From an uncultured Desulfobacteraceae bacterium (GTDB lineage: Bacteria; Desulfobacterota; DSM-4660; Desulfatiglandales; B25-G16): DNA of 64,000 nt. Below are positions 868 to 9,788 of this stretch, one piece after another. A program made the position numbers and the translations under genes. Position 1 is the stretch's first letter, and every line of letters begins with the position of its first letter. Location: NCBI GenBank assembly GCA_964611035.1, contig CAZSWT010000011.1, positions 1,006 through 65,005 of the forward strand. The letters are read 5' to 3'. Below the pieces are notes generated by a model. The model saw only the letters and a list, made by a program, of their open reading frames with translations, made no database searches and was not told the DNA's origin.

Positions 868-1932
868 TTAATACCGTAGTATTTCCTCGTGAACGTTAAA
901 TATATACGCAATCAAAGCAGCCCTTGTCCACATACCGTTTCGCTCCTGCCGCCAGTACATGGCTCTTGGATCAGAATCGATAGCCACATCAATTTCATCT
1001 CTTCGCGGAAAAGGATGCATAATAACTGCGTTTGCTCTTACTTGAGACATGTCAGAGGGTCGAAGCTTAAACCTGGAAATATCAACCCTGTTTGAATCAC
1101 CAGCACTAGTATCGTGCTCATCTTGAATCCTGGTCATATAAATCGCATCGGCTTTAGAAAGCACGTTTTCGAGAGCCTCAGTTTCAACATGATACGGGAT
1201 CTTATATCGTTCCAGGAAACTGCACACATCCTCTTTCATCTGGAAGGGCTTGGGAGAAGCAAAGATGATTTCGATATCTTCAAAGTTTTTCATCAAGTAG
1301 CTTAACGATCGTACTGTTCTGCCCCTTTTAAGATCCCCGCACATCAAAATTGTTTTCCCATCGAGTCCACCCTGGTTTGCGAAAGATCTTTGCAGGGTAT
1401 ATACATCGAGTATCGCCTGGGTGGGATGCTGATCGCTGCCTGAACCACCGTTAATAATTGGGACTGGGCGGTTGGAATAAGTATTCAGCAGCCAGGCAGC
1501 ACGTTCAGCAGGGGCTTCCCCCGTATGCCTCATAATGATTAAATCAGTATACGACGAAAATGTCCGTAAGCTATCATCATAGCTTTCACCCTTAACCTCT
1601 GATGAAACACTGACATCGCGAATCTCGGAGGTTTTAATGCCTAATATGTGACACGCGCTATTAAAAGAGAGGAAAGTCCTGGATGAAGGCTGGGTAAAAT
1701 AGAGCATGGCTCGTTTGTGGCAGAGGATATTTTGCATGAAAAGTGAGCCAGCCTTACTCTCTGATATATGTCGAAGGTGATTTGTAATATCATAAATATT
1801 GTCTATAATATCGCGACTCAACTGCTGCGAGATTATCATGTCAAAAAGGCGCCCATTTTTCTCAAAACACGTAACCTTTTCCTCTGTTGGAAGCTTTTGA
1901 AATTCAGCGAATCTTTCGTCCAAGATATTCAT
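868..1932 (-). CDS. Aspartate/ornithine carbamoyltransferase-family protein, ATCase-like with N-terminal extension
   Basis: Motifs SSRTF (variant of STRTR), IIMRH, HPTQ, GDLKRGRTVRS, YMTRIQ and HPFPR. The start is moved to the ATG at 1932 because the TTG at 1944 overlaps the GGAGGA ribosome-binding site. Confidence 0.75.
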   Translation of the reverse strand: MNILDERFAEFQKLPTEEKVTCFEKNGRLFDMIISQQLSRDIIDNIYDITNHLRHISESKAGSLFMQNILCHKRAMLYFTQPSSRTFLSFNSACHILGIKTSEIRDVSVSSEVKGESYDDSLRTFSSYTDLIIMRHTGEAPAERAAWLLNTYSNRPVPIINGGSGSDQHPTQAILDVYTLQRSFANQGGLDGKTILMCGDLKRGRTVRSLSYLMKNFEDIEIIFASPKPFQMKEDVCSFLERYKIPYHVETEALENVLSKADAIYMTRIQDEHDTSAGDSNRVDISRFKLRPSDMSQVRANAVIMHPFPRRDEIDVAIDSDPRAMYWRQERNGMWTRAALIAYIFNVHEEILRY

Positions 1933-2267
1933 GTAATCCTCCAATTAAAATTTGGGTAATTATATGCCTTTAGAAAGAAAAAGACCAGTGATAGATTTCT
2001 CTGTGGGACAGATCATAGGAATAACATTGACATCTTTTTCCTTGACTCCCAAAGTTATTTACTCCTACACTTACTAATCGAAAGAGGCATTTCATTCAAT
2101 TCAATCAACCGAGTTTACCCTGTTTCCTGAGGTGAGGGAAATTCCACTTAGGCCCTTGTGTCCTCATGTTATTTCTGATCCATGCACTGAAAACAAAATT
2201 ATTGCTGGTCCTGGCCTGGACGTTCTATTGAAAGAACCTCTGTTTACATTGAAAAGGTGATGAAACA

Positions 2268-3608
2268 ATGGCAAGGAAAAATGTCATTATTTTAGGCGCT
2301 GCTGGAAGAGATTTTCACAATTTTAACACCTATTATAGGGACAATGAAGAGTATAATGTGGTTGCCTTTACCGCCACACAAATCCCAAACATTGAGGGCA
2401 GAAAATACCCCGCTGAATTGGCAGGTAATTTATATCCAGATGGTATTCCAATTTTTTCAGAAGAAAAACTGCCACAATTAATTAAAGAGTATAATGTTGA
2501 TGATTGTGTTTTCTCATATACCGACGTTCCTTACACATACGTAATGGGAGTAAGCGCGCTCATTAATGCTGCCGGTGCGAACTTTATATTGTTAGGCACG
2601 AAGGATACTATGATAAAAAGCAGCAAGCCGATGGTTGCAGTGTGTGCTGTGAGAACCGGTTGCGGTAAAAGCCAGACTTCAAGAAAAATTATTGAATTAT
2701 TGATTAAAAAAGGTTTGAAAGTAGTTACGGTGCGTCATCCAATGTCTTATGGTGACTTAGCTGCTCAAAGGGTTCAACGTTTTGCTCACATTGCAGATTT
2801 AAAAAAACATAATTGCACTATTGAAGAAATGGAAGAGTACGAACCAGACCTAATACGAGGAAATGTAATTTATGCCGGTGTTGATTATGAAGCTGTGCTA
2901 AAGGCGGCAGAACAAGATCCTGATGGATGTGACGTTGTGCTCTGGGATGGTGGAAACAATGACTTCCCGTTCTATGTGCCTGATTTAATGATAACTGTTG
3001 TTGACCCGCATCGTCCGGGACATGAATTGTCATATTATCCCAGTGAAGTTACCTTAAAAATTGCTGATGTGGTTATTATCAATAAAATGGATACTGCTGA
3101 TGCCGCTGGCATTCAAACGGTAAGAGAAAGTATCGCAAAGGTTAACCCTGATGCAATTGTCGTTGATGCTACCTCGCCTATTCGGGTTGATAATCCTGAA
3201 GTTATCAAAGGCAAAAAAGTATTAGTCGTTGAGGATGGGCCAACACTGACTCATGGTGGAATGAAGTTTGGTGCAGGTACAATTGCTGCTAATAAATTTG
3301 GTGCAGCCGCATTAGTGGACCCACGACCTTACACGGTTGGTAGGCTTTCTGAAACCTTCAAAATCTATCCTGAAATAGGAACCTTGCTGCCGGCAATGGG
3401 GTATGATCAACAGCAATTAAAGGACCTCGAAACCACGATCAACAATACAGCATGTGAGGCAGTTATTATCGGTACTCCAATAGATTTGAACAGGATTATC
3501 AACATCAAGAGACCGAGCACGAGAGTCTATTATGATTTAGTGGAGATCGGAAGCCCAAACCTTGAAGAAATCTTAAGCGATTTTGTGAAAAGACAAAATC
3601 TTTATTAA
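2268..3608 (+). CDS. COG2403-type P-loop GTPase-like protein (family usually annotated as cyclic 2,3-diphosphoglycerate synthetase), candidate arginine synthetase
   Basis: 446 aa. N-terminus VIILGAAGRDFHNFN...VVAFTATQIP, Walker-A-like RTGCGKSQ, LWDGGNND, and NKMD resembling the G4 motif. AAGGTG RBS upstream. Lies directly upstream of OTC and carbamate kinase. Confidence 0.7.
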   Translation: MARKNVIILGAAGRDFHNFNTYYRDNEEYNVVAFTATQIPNIEGRKYPAELAGNLYPDGIPIFSEEKLPQLIKEYNVDDCVFSYTDVPYTYVMGVSALINAAGANFILLGTKDTMIKSSKPMVAVCAVRTGCGKSQTSRKIIELLIKKGLKVVTVRHPMSYGDLAAQRVQRFAHIADLKKHNCTIEEMEEYEPDLIRGNVIYAGVDYEAVLKAAEQDPDGCDVVLWDGGNNDFPFYVPDLMITVVDPHRPGHELSYYPSEVTLKIADVVIINKMDTADAAGIQTVRESIAKVNPDAIVVDATSPIRVDNPEVIKGKKVLVVEDGPTLTHGGMKFGAGTIAANKFGAAALVDPRPYTVGRLSETFKIYPEIGTLLPAMGYDQQQLKDLETTINNTACEAVIIGTPIDLNRIINIKRPSTRVYYDLVEIGSPNLEEILSDFVKRQNLY

Positions 3609-3956: not shown

Positions 3957-4958
3957 GTGACGTATCATTTAAAAAATAGAAATTTTTTGAAGTTATTGGA
4001 TTTTACACCTGAAGAAATTCAATTTTTACTGGATCTTTCTGCCGATTTGAAAAAAGCAAAATACGCAGGAAAAGAGCAGCCCACATTAACAGGAAAAAAT
4101 ATAGCCTTAATTTTCGAAAAAGCATCAACCAGGACCAGGTGTGCTTTTGAGGTGGCTTCCTATGACCAGGGAGCAAGGGTAACGTATCTTGATCCGTCAG
4201 GCTCTCAAATTGGCAAGAAAGAATCAATCAAAGATACTGCGAGAGTGCTTGGTAGAATGTATGACGGCATTGGGTATCGTGGTTTTGGGCAAAAAATAGT
4301 CGAGGAGTTGGGAAAATATACAGGTATCCCTGTATGGAATGGCCTCACAAATGAATACCATCCGACTCAGGTTCTTGCAGATTTTTTGACAATGATGGAA
4401 TATTCTGACAAGCCCTTAAGCAAGGTAAAGTTTGCGTATGTGGGTGATGCAAAAAACAATATGGGTAATTCATTATTGATTGGTGCTGCAAAAATGGGAA
4501 TGGATTTTCGCTCTGTTGCGCCTAAAAAGGTTCAGCCCAACAAAGAATTAGTCAAAGAGGCAAAAACGATAGCTAAGGAAACCGGGGCAAAACTATTAGT
4601 AACCCATGTTTTGCGAGAAGGTGTAAAGGATTGTGATTTTCTCTATTCAGATGTCTGGGTTTCAATGGGTGAGCCAGAAAAGGTATGGAAAGAAAGAATA
4701 GAATTATTAAAACCCTATCAGATCAACAATGATACTATGAAAATAACAGGCAATCCTCATGTAAAATTTATGCACTGTTTGCCTTCCCTCCATAATCGTG
4801 AGACAATTATTGGAGAGAATATTTATAAAAAATTCGGCTTAGATGGAATGGAGGTAACCGAAGAAGTGTTTGAATCAGAAGCATCTATCGTTTTTGATGA
4901 AGCTGAAAACAGGGTGCATACTATAAAAGCAGTTATGGTTGCAACTTTAGGGTTTTAG
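3957..4958 (+). CDS. argF: Ornithine carbamoyltransferase
   Basis: STRTR, HPTQ, DVWVSMG and HCLP motifs. 333 aa. GTG start 6 nt after AAGGAG. Its position next to carbamate kinase suggests a catabolic (ArcB-like) role. Confidence 0.92.
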
Positions 4959-5044: not shown

Positions 5045-6025
5045 TTGACAGAAAAAGAATCTCACATGTCACAGCCTGGCAAACTCATTGTTATCGCATT
5101 GGGGGGAAACGCAATACTAAAAGCTCATCAGATAGGAATTGTGGAAGAGCAATTAGAAAATATTCGCATCACATGGGAGCAACTCCTCCAAATGATAATG
5201 AAGGGACATAAGATTATTATTACTCACGGCAATGGGCCACAGATCGGCAATCTTCTCATACAGCAGGAAGAGGTTCATTCAACAGTCCCAGCGATGCCAA
5301 TGGATGTTTGCGGGGCTATGAGCCAGGGGCAAATCGGATACATGCTTGAACAGGTTTTACACGATTTGCTCCGAGCCAATGGAATAAACAAAGATATCCT
5401 GACAGTAATTACTCAAGTTATGGTGGATAGCGATGAGTCTGCCTTTAAGAATCCTACAAAACCTATAGGTCCATTCTACAATGCGGAAACAAAAGAACGC
5501 TACGAGAAGGAAAAGGCCTACATCATTAAGGAAGTAAAACCAGGGAATCATCGTCCCTTCCGAAGGGTGGTTCCATCTCCGAATCCTTTAAGAATTATAG
5601 AGGCCAGAGCCCTTAAACATTTGGTAGATACTGGCATCATTATCATTGCTGCCGGTGGTGGTGGTATTCCAGTGACAATGGATTCCAAGGGAAATTATCA
5701 CGGGGTGAATGCAGTCATTGATAAAGATTTGGCAGGGGAAAAGCTGGCTGAGGCTGTTATTGCTGATTTACTCATCATTCTTACAGATGTGGAGAAGGTT
5801 TTCCTCAATTTTGGCAAACCGACACAAATTGCCTTAGATATCGTTCAATTAGAAAAAGCAAAGATGTATCAGAAAGAGGGACACTTTTCTCCCGGGAGCA
5901 TGGGCCCCAAGGTTGAGGCCTGTTTACGGTTTTTGGAGTTTGGAGGGCAAGAGGCAATTATCACGTCCCTGGATAAGGCATCCTCTGCGCTTGAGGGCAA
6001 AACAGGTACTCATTTTATCCCCTAA
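5045..6025 (+). CDS. arcC: Carbamate kinase
   Basis: VIALGGNAIL, ITHGNGPQIGN and IIAAGGGGIPV motifs. TTG start after GGGGAG; the alternative ATG is at 5066. Confidence 0.9.
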   Translation: MTEKESHMSQPGKLIVIALGGNAILKAHQIGIVEEQLENIRITWEQLLQMIMKGHKIIITHGNGPQIGNLLIQQEEVHSTVPAMPMDVCGAMSQGQIGYMLEQVLHDLLRANGINKDILTVITQVMVDSDESAFKNPTKPIGPFYNAETKERYEKEKAYIIKEVKPGNHRPFRRVVPSPNPLRIIEARALKHLVDTGIIIIAAGGGGIPVTMDSKGNYHGVNAVIDKDLAGEKLAEAVIADLLIILTDVEKVFLNFGKPTQIALDIVQLEKAKMYQKEGHFSPGSMGPKVEACLRFLEFGGQEAIITSLDKASSALEGKTGTHFIP

Positions 6026-6051: not shown

Positions 6052-6990
6052 ATGTTTCATTTACTCGAGGCCCAGCAATTCACCAAGAGGAATCTTAGAG
6101 AGCTTTTTGATCTCAGCAGTCGTCTCGAGACAATTTTAGCCCAGGGGGGTGACGAATGTTTAAAGGGTAAGATTTTAGCCAGCCTTTATTTCACTCCGAG
6201 CTTGAGGACACGTTTTTCTTTTGAGGCTGCCATGCTCCGTTTAGGGGGGAGCATCCTATCTACAGAAGCAGCCGACATTTTTTCATCAGAGCTCAAAGGT
6301 CGATTCGAAGACACTATCCAGGTAGTATCCGAAATGTCCGATGTCATAGTACTGCGACATTATGAAAGCGGGTTTGCCAAAAGAGCAGCTGCAGTTTCGT
6401 GTGTCCCAATAATCAATGCCGGAGACGGTCCGGCCCAGCATCCAACCCAAGCCTTACTTGACCTCTATACCATCGATCGTCATTTAGGAGGTGTGGACGG
6501 CTGTTCCATCGCTATGGTTGGGGATCTGAGTGGACGCACTGTCCGTTCTCTGTGCTATTTCTTAGCCAAATTCCATGGAATTTCCATATCCTTTATCTCC
6601 CCCGATTTAACAGAGGTCAAAGACGACATAAAGGAGTATCTCCAGCGACATAAAGTTCGGTTCACAGAGATTACGAACCCAAAAGACGGATTAGTAGATC
6701 TGGTCAAAGAGGTTGATGTCGTGCACATCACTCAACTCTCAAAAGAATATTTTACAGATCACCTCGAGGATTACAAGCAAACTATACGCAATTATGCACT
6801 CAGCGCAAAGGCGCTACGCGCTATGAAGAGATCTGCTGTGATTATGCATCCACTTCCGCGTGCCGATGAATTGCCTGATGAATCAGACAGTGATCCCAGG
6901 GCAATTTATTTTCTTCAAAACCGTTATGGGCTCTATGTTCGCATGGCAATACTCTGTACTGTCTTGAGTTGTTATCCAAAATTTCTGTAA
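6052..6990 (+). CDS. Transcarbamylase of uncertain specificity (ATCase-fold)
   Basis: SLRTRFSFE, VLRH, QHPTQ, GDLSGRTVRS and HPLPR are present. The segment aligning to E. coli YMTRVQKER reads HITQLSKEY, so R229 and Q231 are not conserved. AAGGAG RBS. Confidence 0.75.
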   Translation: MFHLLEAQQFTKRNLRELFDLSSRLETILAQGGDECLKGKILASLYFTPSLRTRFSFEAAMLRLGGSILSTEAADIFSSELKGRFEDTIQVVSEMSDVIVLRHYESGFAKRAAAVSCVPIINAGDGPAQHPTQALLDLYTIDRHLGGVDGCSIAMVGDLSGRTVRSLCYFLAKFHGISISFISPDLTEVKDDIKEYLQRHKVRFTEITNPKDGLVDLVKEVDVVHITQLSKEYFTDHLEDYKQTIRNYALSAKALRAMKRSAVIMHPLPRADELPDESDSDPRAIYFLQNRYGLYVRMAILCTVLSCYPKFL

Positions 6991-8552: not shown

Positions 8553-9788
8553 ATGAAAGATGATACAATAACAGAAATTGGTGATGCCCTGTTTGGTTTT
8601 CAGGCAGCACTCAAAGAAGGTGGCTCAAGCCTTCAGGAATATCTGGAAAAATATTACTATAAGAAGTGGATGGGAGACACCCTCCTTGCTGCCGTATCCA
8701 TACGAGCCACATTCGTGACAGCCATGCACCAATTCCTGGCTGATAAGGGTCTTTGTAATCTTGAAAGGGTACAGCTGAGCCCCCTGACAGATCCCCTGGC
8801 CCATGATGTAGAGCATGTTCCATCAATTTCGTACAAAGGCCTTCAATATGTTATGACCCATAGCATGATCTATTCCAAACTTCTGGCCTGCCACCATCCC
8901 AGAATAAAGGGTATATTCGTTGACTCCCCCAATATCAGGCTTGAGGTTGAGAGCCCTGATAGGATCCAGAGGGGGAAATATATTATTGACTTTAGCCAGA
9001 TGGATATAGAAATGAGGAGAAATCGGGGCATTGATCTTGAGACCTATCTCTCCAAGCCAGACGAGGTAAAAGAGATTCTCAAAGAGGATATGGCCGCTGC
9101 CAAGGATCTCTTTGAACGAATGCTCATCCACAGCATGACAAAGATAGCGGAGAAAAACAGAGAAGAGCTCAAGGAGCTCGGGGTTGCTCTAAAAACCCCA
9201 AAGCAGCCCTTTCCTACATTTGCCTATGACCAATCGAGAAAGAAATACAGTCTCAAAGAATATGAGGTAGGGTTAGGGAAAGAGACATCATCACAGTTCT
9301 TTTGGATTACCGGCATACCAAGAGAAAATTATGATCTTATATACCCTTACCTGAAGCCTGGTGGAAAGATAACAGCAGGTGAGGTAACTTCTGATATGGT
9401 ATATAACTATGACATCTGTGCCAAAAGCATTATCAGGGACACCGGTGAGCAGACTGAAGCACGGGAGCTGCTTTCCGGTGGCATAAGGGAATGGCTCTAT
9501 GAGACGATTGTAGAACGGCTCCTGGATAATAAGGTAATCCCTGTGAAACCTATTATAGTGGAGGGGAATATTGAAAATATCAATCACCTCGGTGGATATG
9601 GGCCATTCCTGTTAGCAGCGAGCATGAAAGATGATACGGGAAGATCAACCTTTCCGGATACCTATGGCGGAGGCATAGGAATAGAGCGGACGCTTTATGC
9701 ACTCTTGCGTGGGCCAAAGGTGAACAAAATTGATGATGTTACCTTCTTTGGCAAAAACCCGGACAGTCACCAGATATATTTATTTTAA
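8553..9788 (+). CDS. Stand-alone class II aminoacyl-tRNA-synthetase-like catalytic domain (Asp/Asn-RS or AsnA-like ligase)
   Basis: Motif 2-like IRLEVES...IIDFSQMDIEM, LLSGGIRE, and motif 3-like GGGIGIERTLYALL. No N-terminal OB anticodon-binding domain. 411 aa. Confidence 0.6.
   Translation: MKDDTITEIGDALFGFQAALKEGGSSLQEYLEKYYYKKWMGDTLLAAVSIRATFVTAMHQFLADKGLCNLERVQLSPLTDPLAHDVEHVPSISYKGLQYVMTHSMIYSKLLACHHPRIKGIFVDSPNIRLEVESPDRIQRGKYIIDFSQMDIEMRRNRGIDLETYLSKPDEVKEILKEDMAAAKDLFERMLIHSMTKIAEKNREELKELGVALKTPKQPFPTFAYDQSRKKYSLKEYEVGLGKETSSQFFWITGIPRENYDLIYPYLKPGGKITAGEVTSDMVYNYDICAKSIIRDTGEQTEARELLSGGIREWLYETIVERLLDNKVIPVKPIIVEGNIENINHLGGYGPFLLAASMKDDTGRSTFPDTYGGGIGIERTLYALLRGPKVNKIDDVTFFGKNPDSHQIYLF

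Follow-up and report, generated by a model that had tools for sequence, protein, structure and literature searches.

What does a protein of the aspartate transcarbamylase (ATCase) fold do when it lies directly behind a carbamate kinase (CK) gene and no longer carries the residues that anchor aspartate? The question is raised by an open reading frame at positions 6052-6990 (+ strand), here called X, in a 64,000-nucleotide stretch of contig CAZSWT010000011.1 from an uncultured Desulfobacteraceae bacterium; the whole of this stretch is referred to as the window. It is established here that X has lost the aspartate site and kept the carbamoyl phosphate (CP) site, that it is paralogous to the true pyrB of the genome, and that its linkage to a co-evolving CK is universal among the loci examined. 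From the sequence we infer its activity, direction and substrate class: X is, with moderate confidence, a transcarbamylase that acts catabolically on a ureido compound bearing a single carboxylate. The CK-X pair and the motifs of X are as follows; residue names such as R229, Q231 and R234 follow the numbering of E. coli PyrB throughout.

5045-6025, + strand: carbamate kinase of the X-linked lineage (TIGR00746, 408.6 bits; cut-off 358), the only CK in the genome
6052-6990, + strand: X, an ATCase-fold transcarbamylase paralogue of 312 amino acid residues, with the CP site intact and the aspartate site replaced
6199-6213, + strand: SLRTR, residues 50-54, the CP phosphate-binding motif, with S52, R54 and T55 kept and T53 replaced by Leu
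6280-6291, + strand: FSSE in the 80s loop, with Glu in place of the Ala/Gly of ATCases, as in 37 of 38 clade members
Within X, residues 101-103: LRH
6439-6450, + strand: HPTQ, residues 130-133 (H134 and Q137), the CP carbamoyl-binding motif
6532-6549, + strand: GRTVRS, residues 161-166, containing the equivalent of Arg167, the α-carboxylate ligand, found in 38 of 38 members
6730-6753, + strand: TQLSKEYF, residues 227-234, replacing TRxQxERF of the ATCase 240s loop (R229Q, Q231S, R234Y)
6847-6861, + strand: HPLPR, residues 266-270, an ATCase-type motif that is kept, unlike in the published pseudo-ATCase groups

Sequence and motifs of X

Translation of the frame gives 312 residues without stops, starting at an ATG preceded by a GGAG ribosome-binding site, and a domain profile search found both transcarbamylase domains (OTCace_N and OTCace). 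The closest solved structure is the Arabidopsis ATCase 6ypo (295 bits, HMMER). The HMMER alignment places "vdvvhitqlskeyf" of X on "cdvvyqtriqrerf" of 6ypo, which yields R229Q, Q231S and R234Y; E50 is replaced by Thr, and K84 is present. In ATCases, R229 and Q231 anchor the β-carboxylate of aspartate, R167 and K84 position its α-carboxylate, and the motif RxQxER is found in all known members (PMC4581275). This defining motif is absent from X. Relative to plant-type ATCases, X also carries a 4-residue insert at 207-210.

A preliminary description of this DNA had listed the motifs of X together with R229Q and Q231S, all of which are borne out by the translation and the HMMER alignment. It had also pointed out the Leu at T53, which is not informative: S[LT]RT is normal in ornithine transcarbamylases and YgeW-type proteins (PMC4016543), and within the clade of X the position varies among N, T, I, L and M.

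The X clade

Gln or His occupies the R229 position in 87 of the 120 best database hits, and the clade comprises at least 87 protein clusters. Canonical ATCases, reading TRIQKERF, come next, at 50-56% identity to X. Against bacterial plant-type ATCases the identity is 53-56%, and public databases label X as ATCase. On a maximum-likelihood tree a single state change suffices for the altered proteins (SH-aLRT 88), and the clade as a whole adjoins the plant-type bacterial ATCases. It is made up of group A (support 100), which includes the target, group B (support 99), and a few basal lineages. Group A reads T-Q-L-[STV]-K-E-[HY]-F and has an 80s loop shorter by one residue; group B reads T-Q-[ITA]-P-x-G-S-F.

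Residue statistics were compiled for 38 non-redundant clade members and 26 sister ATCases. S52, R54, T55, R105, H134, Q137, R167, P266 and R296 are invariant throughout the clade (38/38), and L267 is kept in 31 members. E50, R229, Q231 and R234, which are 96-100% conserved in the sister ATCases, are replaced in all 38, E50 by Val or Thr, Q231 by Ser, Thr or Pro, and R234 by Tyr, His or Ser. K84 is variable, being kept in 25. Gains specific to the clade are the Glu of FSSE, present in 37 of the 38 members, and, in 32 of them, a Tyr at the N291 position. To judge from these alignments, the substitutions are not chance drift. Because the residues of the CP site are invariant while those of the aspartate site are replaced, X appears to be an enzyme that binds a particular second ligand. 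Such a pattern would be expected if CP and a carboxylate beside the reacting nitrogen are still bound while the side-chain pocket has been rebuilt.

Carriers of the two groups are related to one another. Between a group A locus (L102) and a group B locus (L189), the YchF proteins are 82% identical, a TPR protein 75% and argF 83-85%, as against only 61% for CK and 55% for X. Since the housekeeping proteins are 75-85% identical and the CK and X proteins so much less, A and B are best seen as paralogous modules, which argues for diverged functions and would fit a divergence of substrates. The module has a patchy distribution, of the kind produced by horizontal gene transfer; among 151 Methylomirabilota genomes X was found in one, the already known metagenome-assembled genome (MAG), and in none of the 150 further genomes searched. 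No paper describing the clade was found in the literature searched, reviews and papers on the arginine synthetase ArcE included.

Relationship to the pyrimidine enzyme

The source genome is a 3.7-Mb MAG, 97% complete, and has four transcarbamylase genes. Three lie within the window, at 868-1944 (- strand), at 3957-4958 and at X itself. The fourth is a canonical pyrB on contig C10, with pyrC directly after it, which scores 392.7 bits with NF002032 (cut-off 263) and 307.7 with TIGR00670; carB is present elsewhere in the genome. X reaches 253.7 bits with TIGR00670, just over the cut-off of 236.95, and 231.8 with NF002032, under the cut-off of 263. Models of ornithine carbamoyltransferase (OTC) give 125-134 bits, far under their cut-offs, and neither the DxxxSMG loop nor HCLP, typical of ornithine and putrescine carbamoyltransferases, was seen in the alignment of X. 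All the CP-binding motifs of ATCases (S-x-R-T-R, H-P-x-Q and H-P-L-P) are there, whereas the domain-closure Glu50 is lost throughout the clade and the 80s-loop Lys84 is kept in only part of it. Nor does X stand in a pyrimidine-pathway context, for which the pair on C10 provides the example.

Because canonical pyrB-pyrC and carB lie elsewhere in the genome, X is to be regarded as a paralogue and not as the pyrimidine enzyme. Most likely it no longer uses aspartate. The preliminary description had come to the same view of the second substrate and had proposed looking for a canonical pyrB elsewhere; this gene is now located, and X is not the sole homologue.

Linkage to carbamate kinase

CK ends 26 nt upstream of X, and no terminator-like site was found on the + strand between them. 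The position directly after CK, which had been pointed out at the start, proves to be general: CK lies directly upstream and on the same strand in 20 of 20 loci from about a dozen lineages, across a gap that is usually 3-33 nt and at most about 300 nt. These loci are the window, those of five relatives from the same family, L005-L009, L102-L104, L106, L107-L108 and L187-L190. Scans of genome and metagenome contig collections returned mostly canonical ATCases, L107 and L108 being the useful ones among the matches listed. In one locus, on a metagenome contig (L005:6993-7974), the CK that precedes the X homologue is called as two genes, of 190 and 110 residues, owing to a frameshift, as in a pseudogene, or to an assembly error.

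Within the bacterial family, X occurs in 7 of 25 genomes, always with the X-linked CK. The other genomes of the family and order have a different CK, 43-47% identical, beside OTC and/or ArcE. One relative (G020) has both: at 1.54 Mb lies an OTC-CK pair of the arc type, and at 0.86 Mb a CK-X pair that stands alone. In a CK tree, 14 of 14 X-linked kinases are separated by a 100/100 branch from four arc-type kinases of the same family, and the branching inside the X-linked clade mirrors groups A and B of X. As these kinases form a clade of their own that mirrors X, CK-X can be described as a co-inherited two-gene module.

Phosphorolysis by transcarbamylases is unfavourable and needs coupling to CK, and co-transcription with CK marks the catabolic enzymes (PMC6022934). 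By gene adjacency and predicted co-transcription, X would bear this mark.

Genomic context of the module

Elsewhere CK-X is mostly accompanied by genes of ureide catabolism, together with transporters and regulators of the IclR or GntR type; in this sample of loci the arginine setting of the window is one among several. In group A, two loci (L005 and L102) have the order allG-allF-CK-X-allH with a Liv/Urt-type ABC transporter. A third (L006) combines GntR and subunits resembling dihydropyrimidine dehydrogenase with a cyclic amidohydrolase, a transcarbamylase similar to OTC, CK-X and a TRAP transporter, and a fourth (L103) has AllH, an amidase resembling AtzE, hydrolases of the cytosine-deaminase-like and TRZ/ATZ kinds, and CK-X. 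The group B loci L007-L009, L108, L187/L188 and L189 contain IclR and argF, an amidohydrolase of the hydantoinase/dihydropyrimidinase kind, a pyrB of canonical type, CK-X and a pyrE-like gene, with purF nearby; in another (L106), an ATP-dependent hydantoinase A/B, CK-X and a further transcarbamylase are found. Two more loci carry a DDAH/ADI-like protein and an isochorismatase-family hydrolase closest to BiuH/RutB (L104), and AllG, an amidohydrolase and an ABC transporter (L190), each with CK-X.

The group B block is sometimes interleaved with subunits of the xanthine dehydrogenase family (L007-L009, L108 and L187-L189). It may represent a fermentation of the carbamoyl-aspartate/orotate type with a catabolic ATCase, or else a biosynthetic hub fed by CK. 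A homospermidine-synthase-like gene is convergent to X in three genomes (L097 in G020, L099 in G024 and L100 in G009); it scores 426 bits with NF001980, for which the cut-off is 450. This gene prompted putrescine carbamoyltransferase as a candidate function for X, which was discarded because agmatine deiminase (PF04371) was found in none of 41 related genomes.

In the window, the module is surrounded by the following genes.

3-746, + strand: argG (argininosuccinate synthase), 3' part
868-1944, - strand: a third ATCase-fold paralogue, 358 residues, which keeps TRIQ, reads SSRTF and has an N-terminal extension
2268-3608, + strand: probable arginine synthetase ArcE, a P-loop protein like cyclic-2,3-DPG synthetase, with weak cobW and cDPGS hits
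3957-4958, + strand: ornithine carbamoyltransferase (NF003286, 564.8 bits; cut-off 515), the only OTC of the genome
7212-8540, + strand: glnA (type I glutamine synthetase), downstream of X after a gap of 221 bp
8553-9788, + strand: paralogue of AsnA/AsnRS-like class II synthetases, below the family cut-offs

The assignment of 2268-3608 as probable ArcE derives from the weak cobW and cDPGS hits and from its position by arcB and arcC; ArcE homologues have been described in just such P-loop and cyclic-2,3-DPG-synthetase-like terms (PMC11032458). The glnA gene, which is also found near CK-X in relatives, is probably a separate transcription unit from CK-X. Given the arcE-like gene, the only OTC of the genome and argG nearby, the "arc" genes of the window may also, or instead, be biosynthetic, leading from ornithine through citrulline to arginine with free ammonia.

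Proposed function

X would be a catalytically active transcarbamylase that descends from the ATCases of the plant type (ATC II) and uses phosphate to split a ureido compound into an amine and CP. CK would then convert CP and ADP to ATP, NH3 and CO2, so that the two genes make up a self-contained module. In the source genome this module lies behind arcE-arcB, so that a single kinase would serve both citrulline and the substrate of X. As Arg167 and Arg105 are kept, R229 and Q231 replaced, and a Glu and a Tyr gained, the substrate is expected to be a small ureido acid with one carboxylate by the reacting nitrogen; the variability of K84 and the loss of the E50-R234 closure pair likewise favour a mono-carboxylate. 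Candidates are an N-carbamoyl-α-amino acid, ureidoglycine or allantoate, ureidoglycolate, and an acyl-urea such as oxalurate or allophanate. The catabolic direction is argued from the rule that co-transcription with CK marks catabolic enzymes (PMC6022934) and from the regulators, transporters and hydrolases of most contexts.

The preliminary description, which had proposed a catabolic transcarbamylase for a ureido compound, was largely right in outline. The universal linkage to CK and the separation from pyrimidine synthesis strengthen its proposal; direction and substrate are still deductions, as they were then.

Several observations weigh against a catabolic role of this kind. X often stands beside another transcarbamylase able to feed the kinase, namely OTC in the window, canonical-type argF and pyrB in group B, and OTC-like proteins in L006, L102 and L106. 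Being so often an extra beside pathway-specific transcarbamylases, X does not seem tied to one pathway, and the contexts are too varied for one substrate to be named. There is no evident upstream source of a ureido substrate in the source genome: tblastn found neither AllF, AllG and AllH nor any dihydropyrimidinase or hydantoinase other than pyrC, and agmatine deiminase is lacking as well. The argument from the pocket draws on the alignment; an AlphaFold2 model of X, built from a 22-sequence alignment, has a low mean pLDDT of 65. Finally, the neighbouring argG, OTC, glnA and AsnA-like genes also fit an anabolic role.

The β-alanine, dihydropyrimidine and allantoin routes were considered for the source genome and set aside on the tblastn negatives. 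Another cluster of this genome (contig C8:10547-23606) has the order GntR, 4Fe-4S protein, amidase, Peripla_BP_5/6 ABC transporter, amidohydrolase remnant and AtzE-like amidase. The last of these is 55% identical to the amidase beside CK-X in L103, and the cluster might supply X with its substrate. A role of CK-X as a substitute for carbamoyl-phosphate synthetase was also considered and dropped, since the source genome has carB, as do three of its six X-carrying relatives; the remaining ones are incomplete MAGs.

Alternative explanations

An anabolic role is unlikely, though it is the alternative to which we give most weight. CK would spend one ATP to make CP from carbamate that derives from ammonia, and X would carbamoylate an amine other than aspartate to give a nitrogen-rich ureido product. 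CKs are able to act anabolically (PMC6022934), and ArcE, being reversible, can turn citrulline and NH3 into arginine (PMC11032458). In the window, CK-X lies amid genes of nitrogen assimilation (argG, arcE, the only OTC, glnA and the AsnA-like ligase), a glnA and a purF-like amidotransferase occur near the pair in relatives, and group B modules are flanked by a canonical-type pyrB on one side and pyrE on the other, with purF close by and argF further upstream. A genome with carB, however, does not need a dedicated CK to supply CP, most contexts outside the Desulfobacterales include transporters, hydrolases of catabolic type and a regulator such as IclR or GntR, and neither a candidate ureido product nor a downstream enzyme is conserved beside X. 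The constancy of the pair, while the pathway and the accompanying transcarbamylase vary, could instead mean that X is a general partner of CK that recovers CP and ATP from some ubiquitous small carbamoyl compound and belongs to no one pathway. N-Carbamoyl amino acids (spontaneous products of CP or cyanate), allophanate (carbamate being the leaving group or acceptor) and cyanate plus phosphate have been thought of as substrates. If true, this would explain why the pair is attached to all kinds of CP-producing and ureide-degrading operons and also stands alone, as in G020, where it has no upstream hydrolase or transporter. The loss of the charged side-chain anchors with retention of the α-carboxylate Arg is in keeping with it, as are the several contexts of biuret-, allophanate- or oxalurate-type chemistry (PMC12625717). 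The idea is nevertheless pure conjecture, no such enzyme having been found in the literature searched; the fixed new Glu and Tyr are more in line with one specific ligand than with a permissive pocket, and the different 240s loops of groups A and B suggest different substrates and not one universal compound. We consider it improbable.

It is doubtful in a higher degree that X is a non-catalytic CP-binding subunit, which would serve the kinase by channelling or buffering CP, or else act as its regulator. The obligate adjacency and co-evolution with CK would be accounted for, as would the presence of X alongside other transcarbamylases that should suffice, and CP-channelling complexes of CK and a transcarbamylase are known in Pyrococcus (PMC6022934). 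Yet ordinary catabolic pairs of transcarbamylase and CK co-evolve too, and residues required solely to catalyse the reaction and to bind the second substrate (H134, Q137, R167 and the cis-proline motif HPLP), of the sort that pseudoenzymes usually lose, are invariant in the clade, with the new pocket residues fixed. Least credible of all, and very improbable, is an ATCase isozyme that binds aspartate with different residues and links catabolic CP to pyrimidine synthesis. The TIGR00670 score just over the equivalog cut-off (253.7 against 236.95), the 53-56% identity to canonical plant-type ATCases and the database label speak in its favour; the replacement of R229, Q231, E50 and R234 in all 38 members, when RxQxER is present in all known ATCases (PMC4581275), speaks against it, together with the canonical pyrB-pyrC pair of the source genome and the canonical-type pyrB right beside CK-X in group B operons.

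Comparison with known systems

A catabolic transcarbamylase of the proposed kind resembles several known enzymes. With the plant-type (ATC II) ATCases, exemplified by Arabidopsis PYRB (6ypo) and E. coli PyrB, X shares fold and length, all the CP ligands, R167, HPLP and the "FSS" of the CP loop; it differs in adjoining CK and not pyrC or pyrI. The pseudo-ATCases (PMC4016543), which include the ureidoglycine carbamoyltransferase Rxyl_2847 of Rubrobacter xylanophilus, are like X in being paralogues of the ATCase branch that are mislabelled as ATCase, lack RxQ, keep STRT and HPTQ, and coexist with a genuine ATCase. Their group 1 also lies beside a carbamate kinase, in a purine-catabolic cluster, and is catabolic (PMC4016543). 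The motifs published for the three groups are HPLA with AIA, AIS or SIA, H[ST]LP with GX[SC], and HSLP with VXP (Barba et al. 2013, PMC4016543). By these motifs X, with HPLP and QLS (HPLP and Q-[ITA]-P in group B), falls outside all three.

Catabolic ornithine transcarbamylase and putrescine carbamoyltransferase follow the same logic, in which an unfavourable phosphorolysis is pulled towards ATP by a co-transcribed CK (PMC6022934), but they are members of the OTC branch (DxxxSMG, HCLP) and X is one of the ATC branch. The AllFGH oxamic transcarbamylase of E. coli, with the kinase AllK (PMC11326118), would be comparable in carrying out a CP-forming phosphorolysis of a ureide with a dedicated CK; its fold is unrelated to that of X. 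Where AllFGH and X co-occur, X presumably acts on a different ureide. X thus seems to work like the catabolic ornithine, putrescine and ureidoglycine systems and to be a member of none of them, and by its motifs the clade would be an undescribed variant of the CK-coupled transcarbamylases.

In 2018 a review counted three firmly established catabolic transcarbamylases of the transcarbamylase fold (ornithine, putrescine and ureidoglycine), to which AllFGH, of an unrelated fold, was added in 2024, and reviews have asked which other ureido compounds microbes turn into ATP (PMC4581275, PMC6022934). The X clade is large, extends over several lineages and is uniformly mislabelled "aspartate carbamoyltransferase," which distorts predictions of pyrimidine biosynthesis in MAGs. 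Identification of its substrate would add a reaction of substrate-level phosphorylation to the anaerobic nitrogen metabolism of sediments and soils, and could explain an extra gene in many bacterial operons for arginine synthetase (ArcE).

Other genes of the window

The ATCase-fold paralogue at 868-1944 has argG immediately upstream and is divergent from arcE. It keeps TRIQDEH, has SSRTF for STRTR (R56F) and an N-terminal extension of about 35 residues, and falls below all ATCase cut-offs (225 against 237 bits with TIGR00670). A protein 98% identical to it occupies the same position in a relative (G003). It could be a catabolic or alternative ATCase of the kind speculated on in reviews. The product of 8553-9788, which begins 12 nt after glnA, has 411 residues and is similar to class II aminoacyl-tRNA synthetases and AsnA; it scores 134 bits against an AsnA cut-off of 309, and is conserved together with glnA in the same relative (82% identity).

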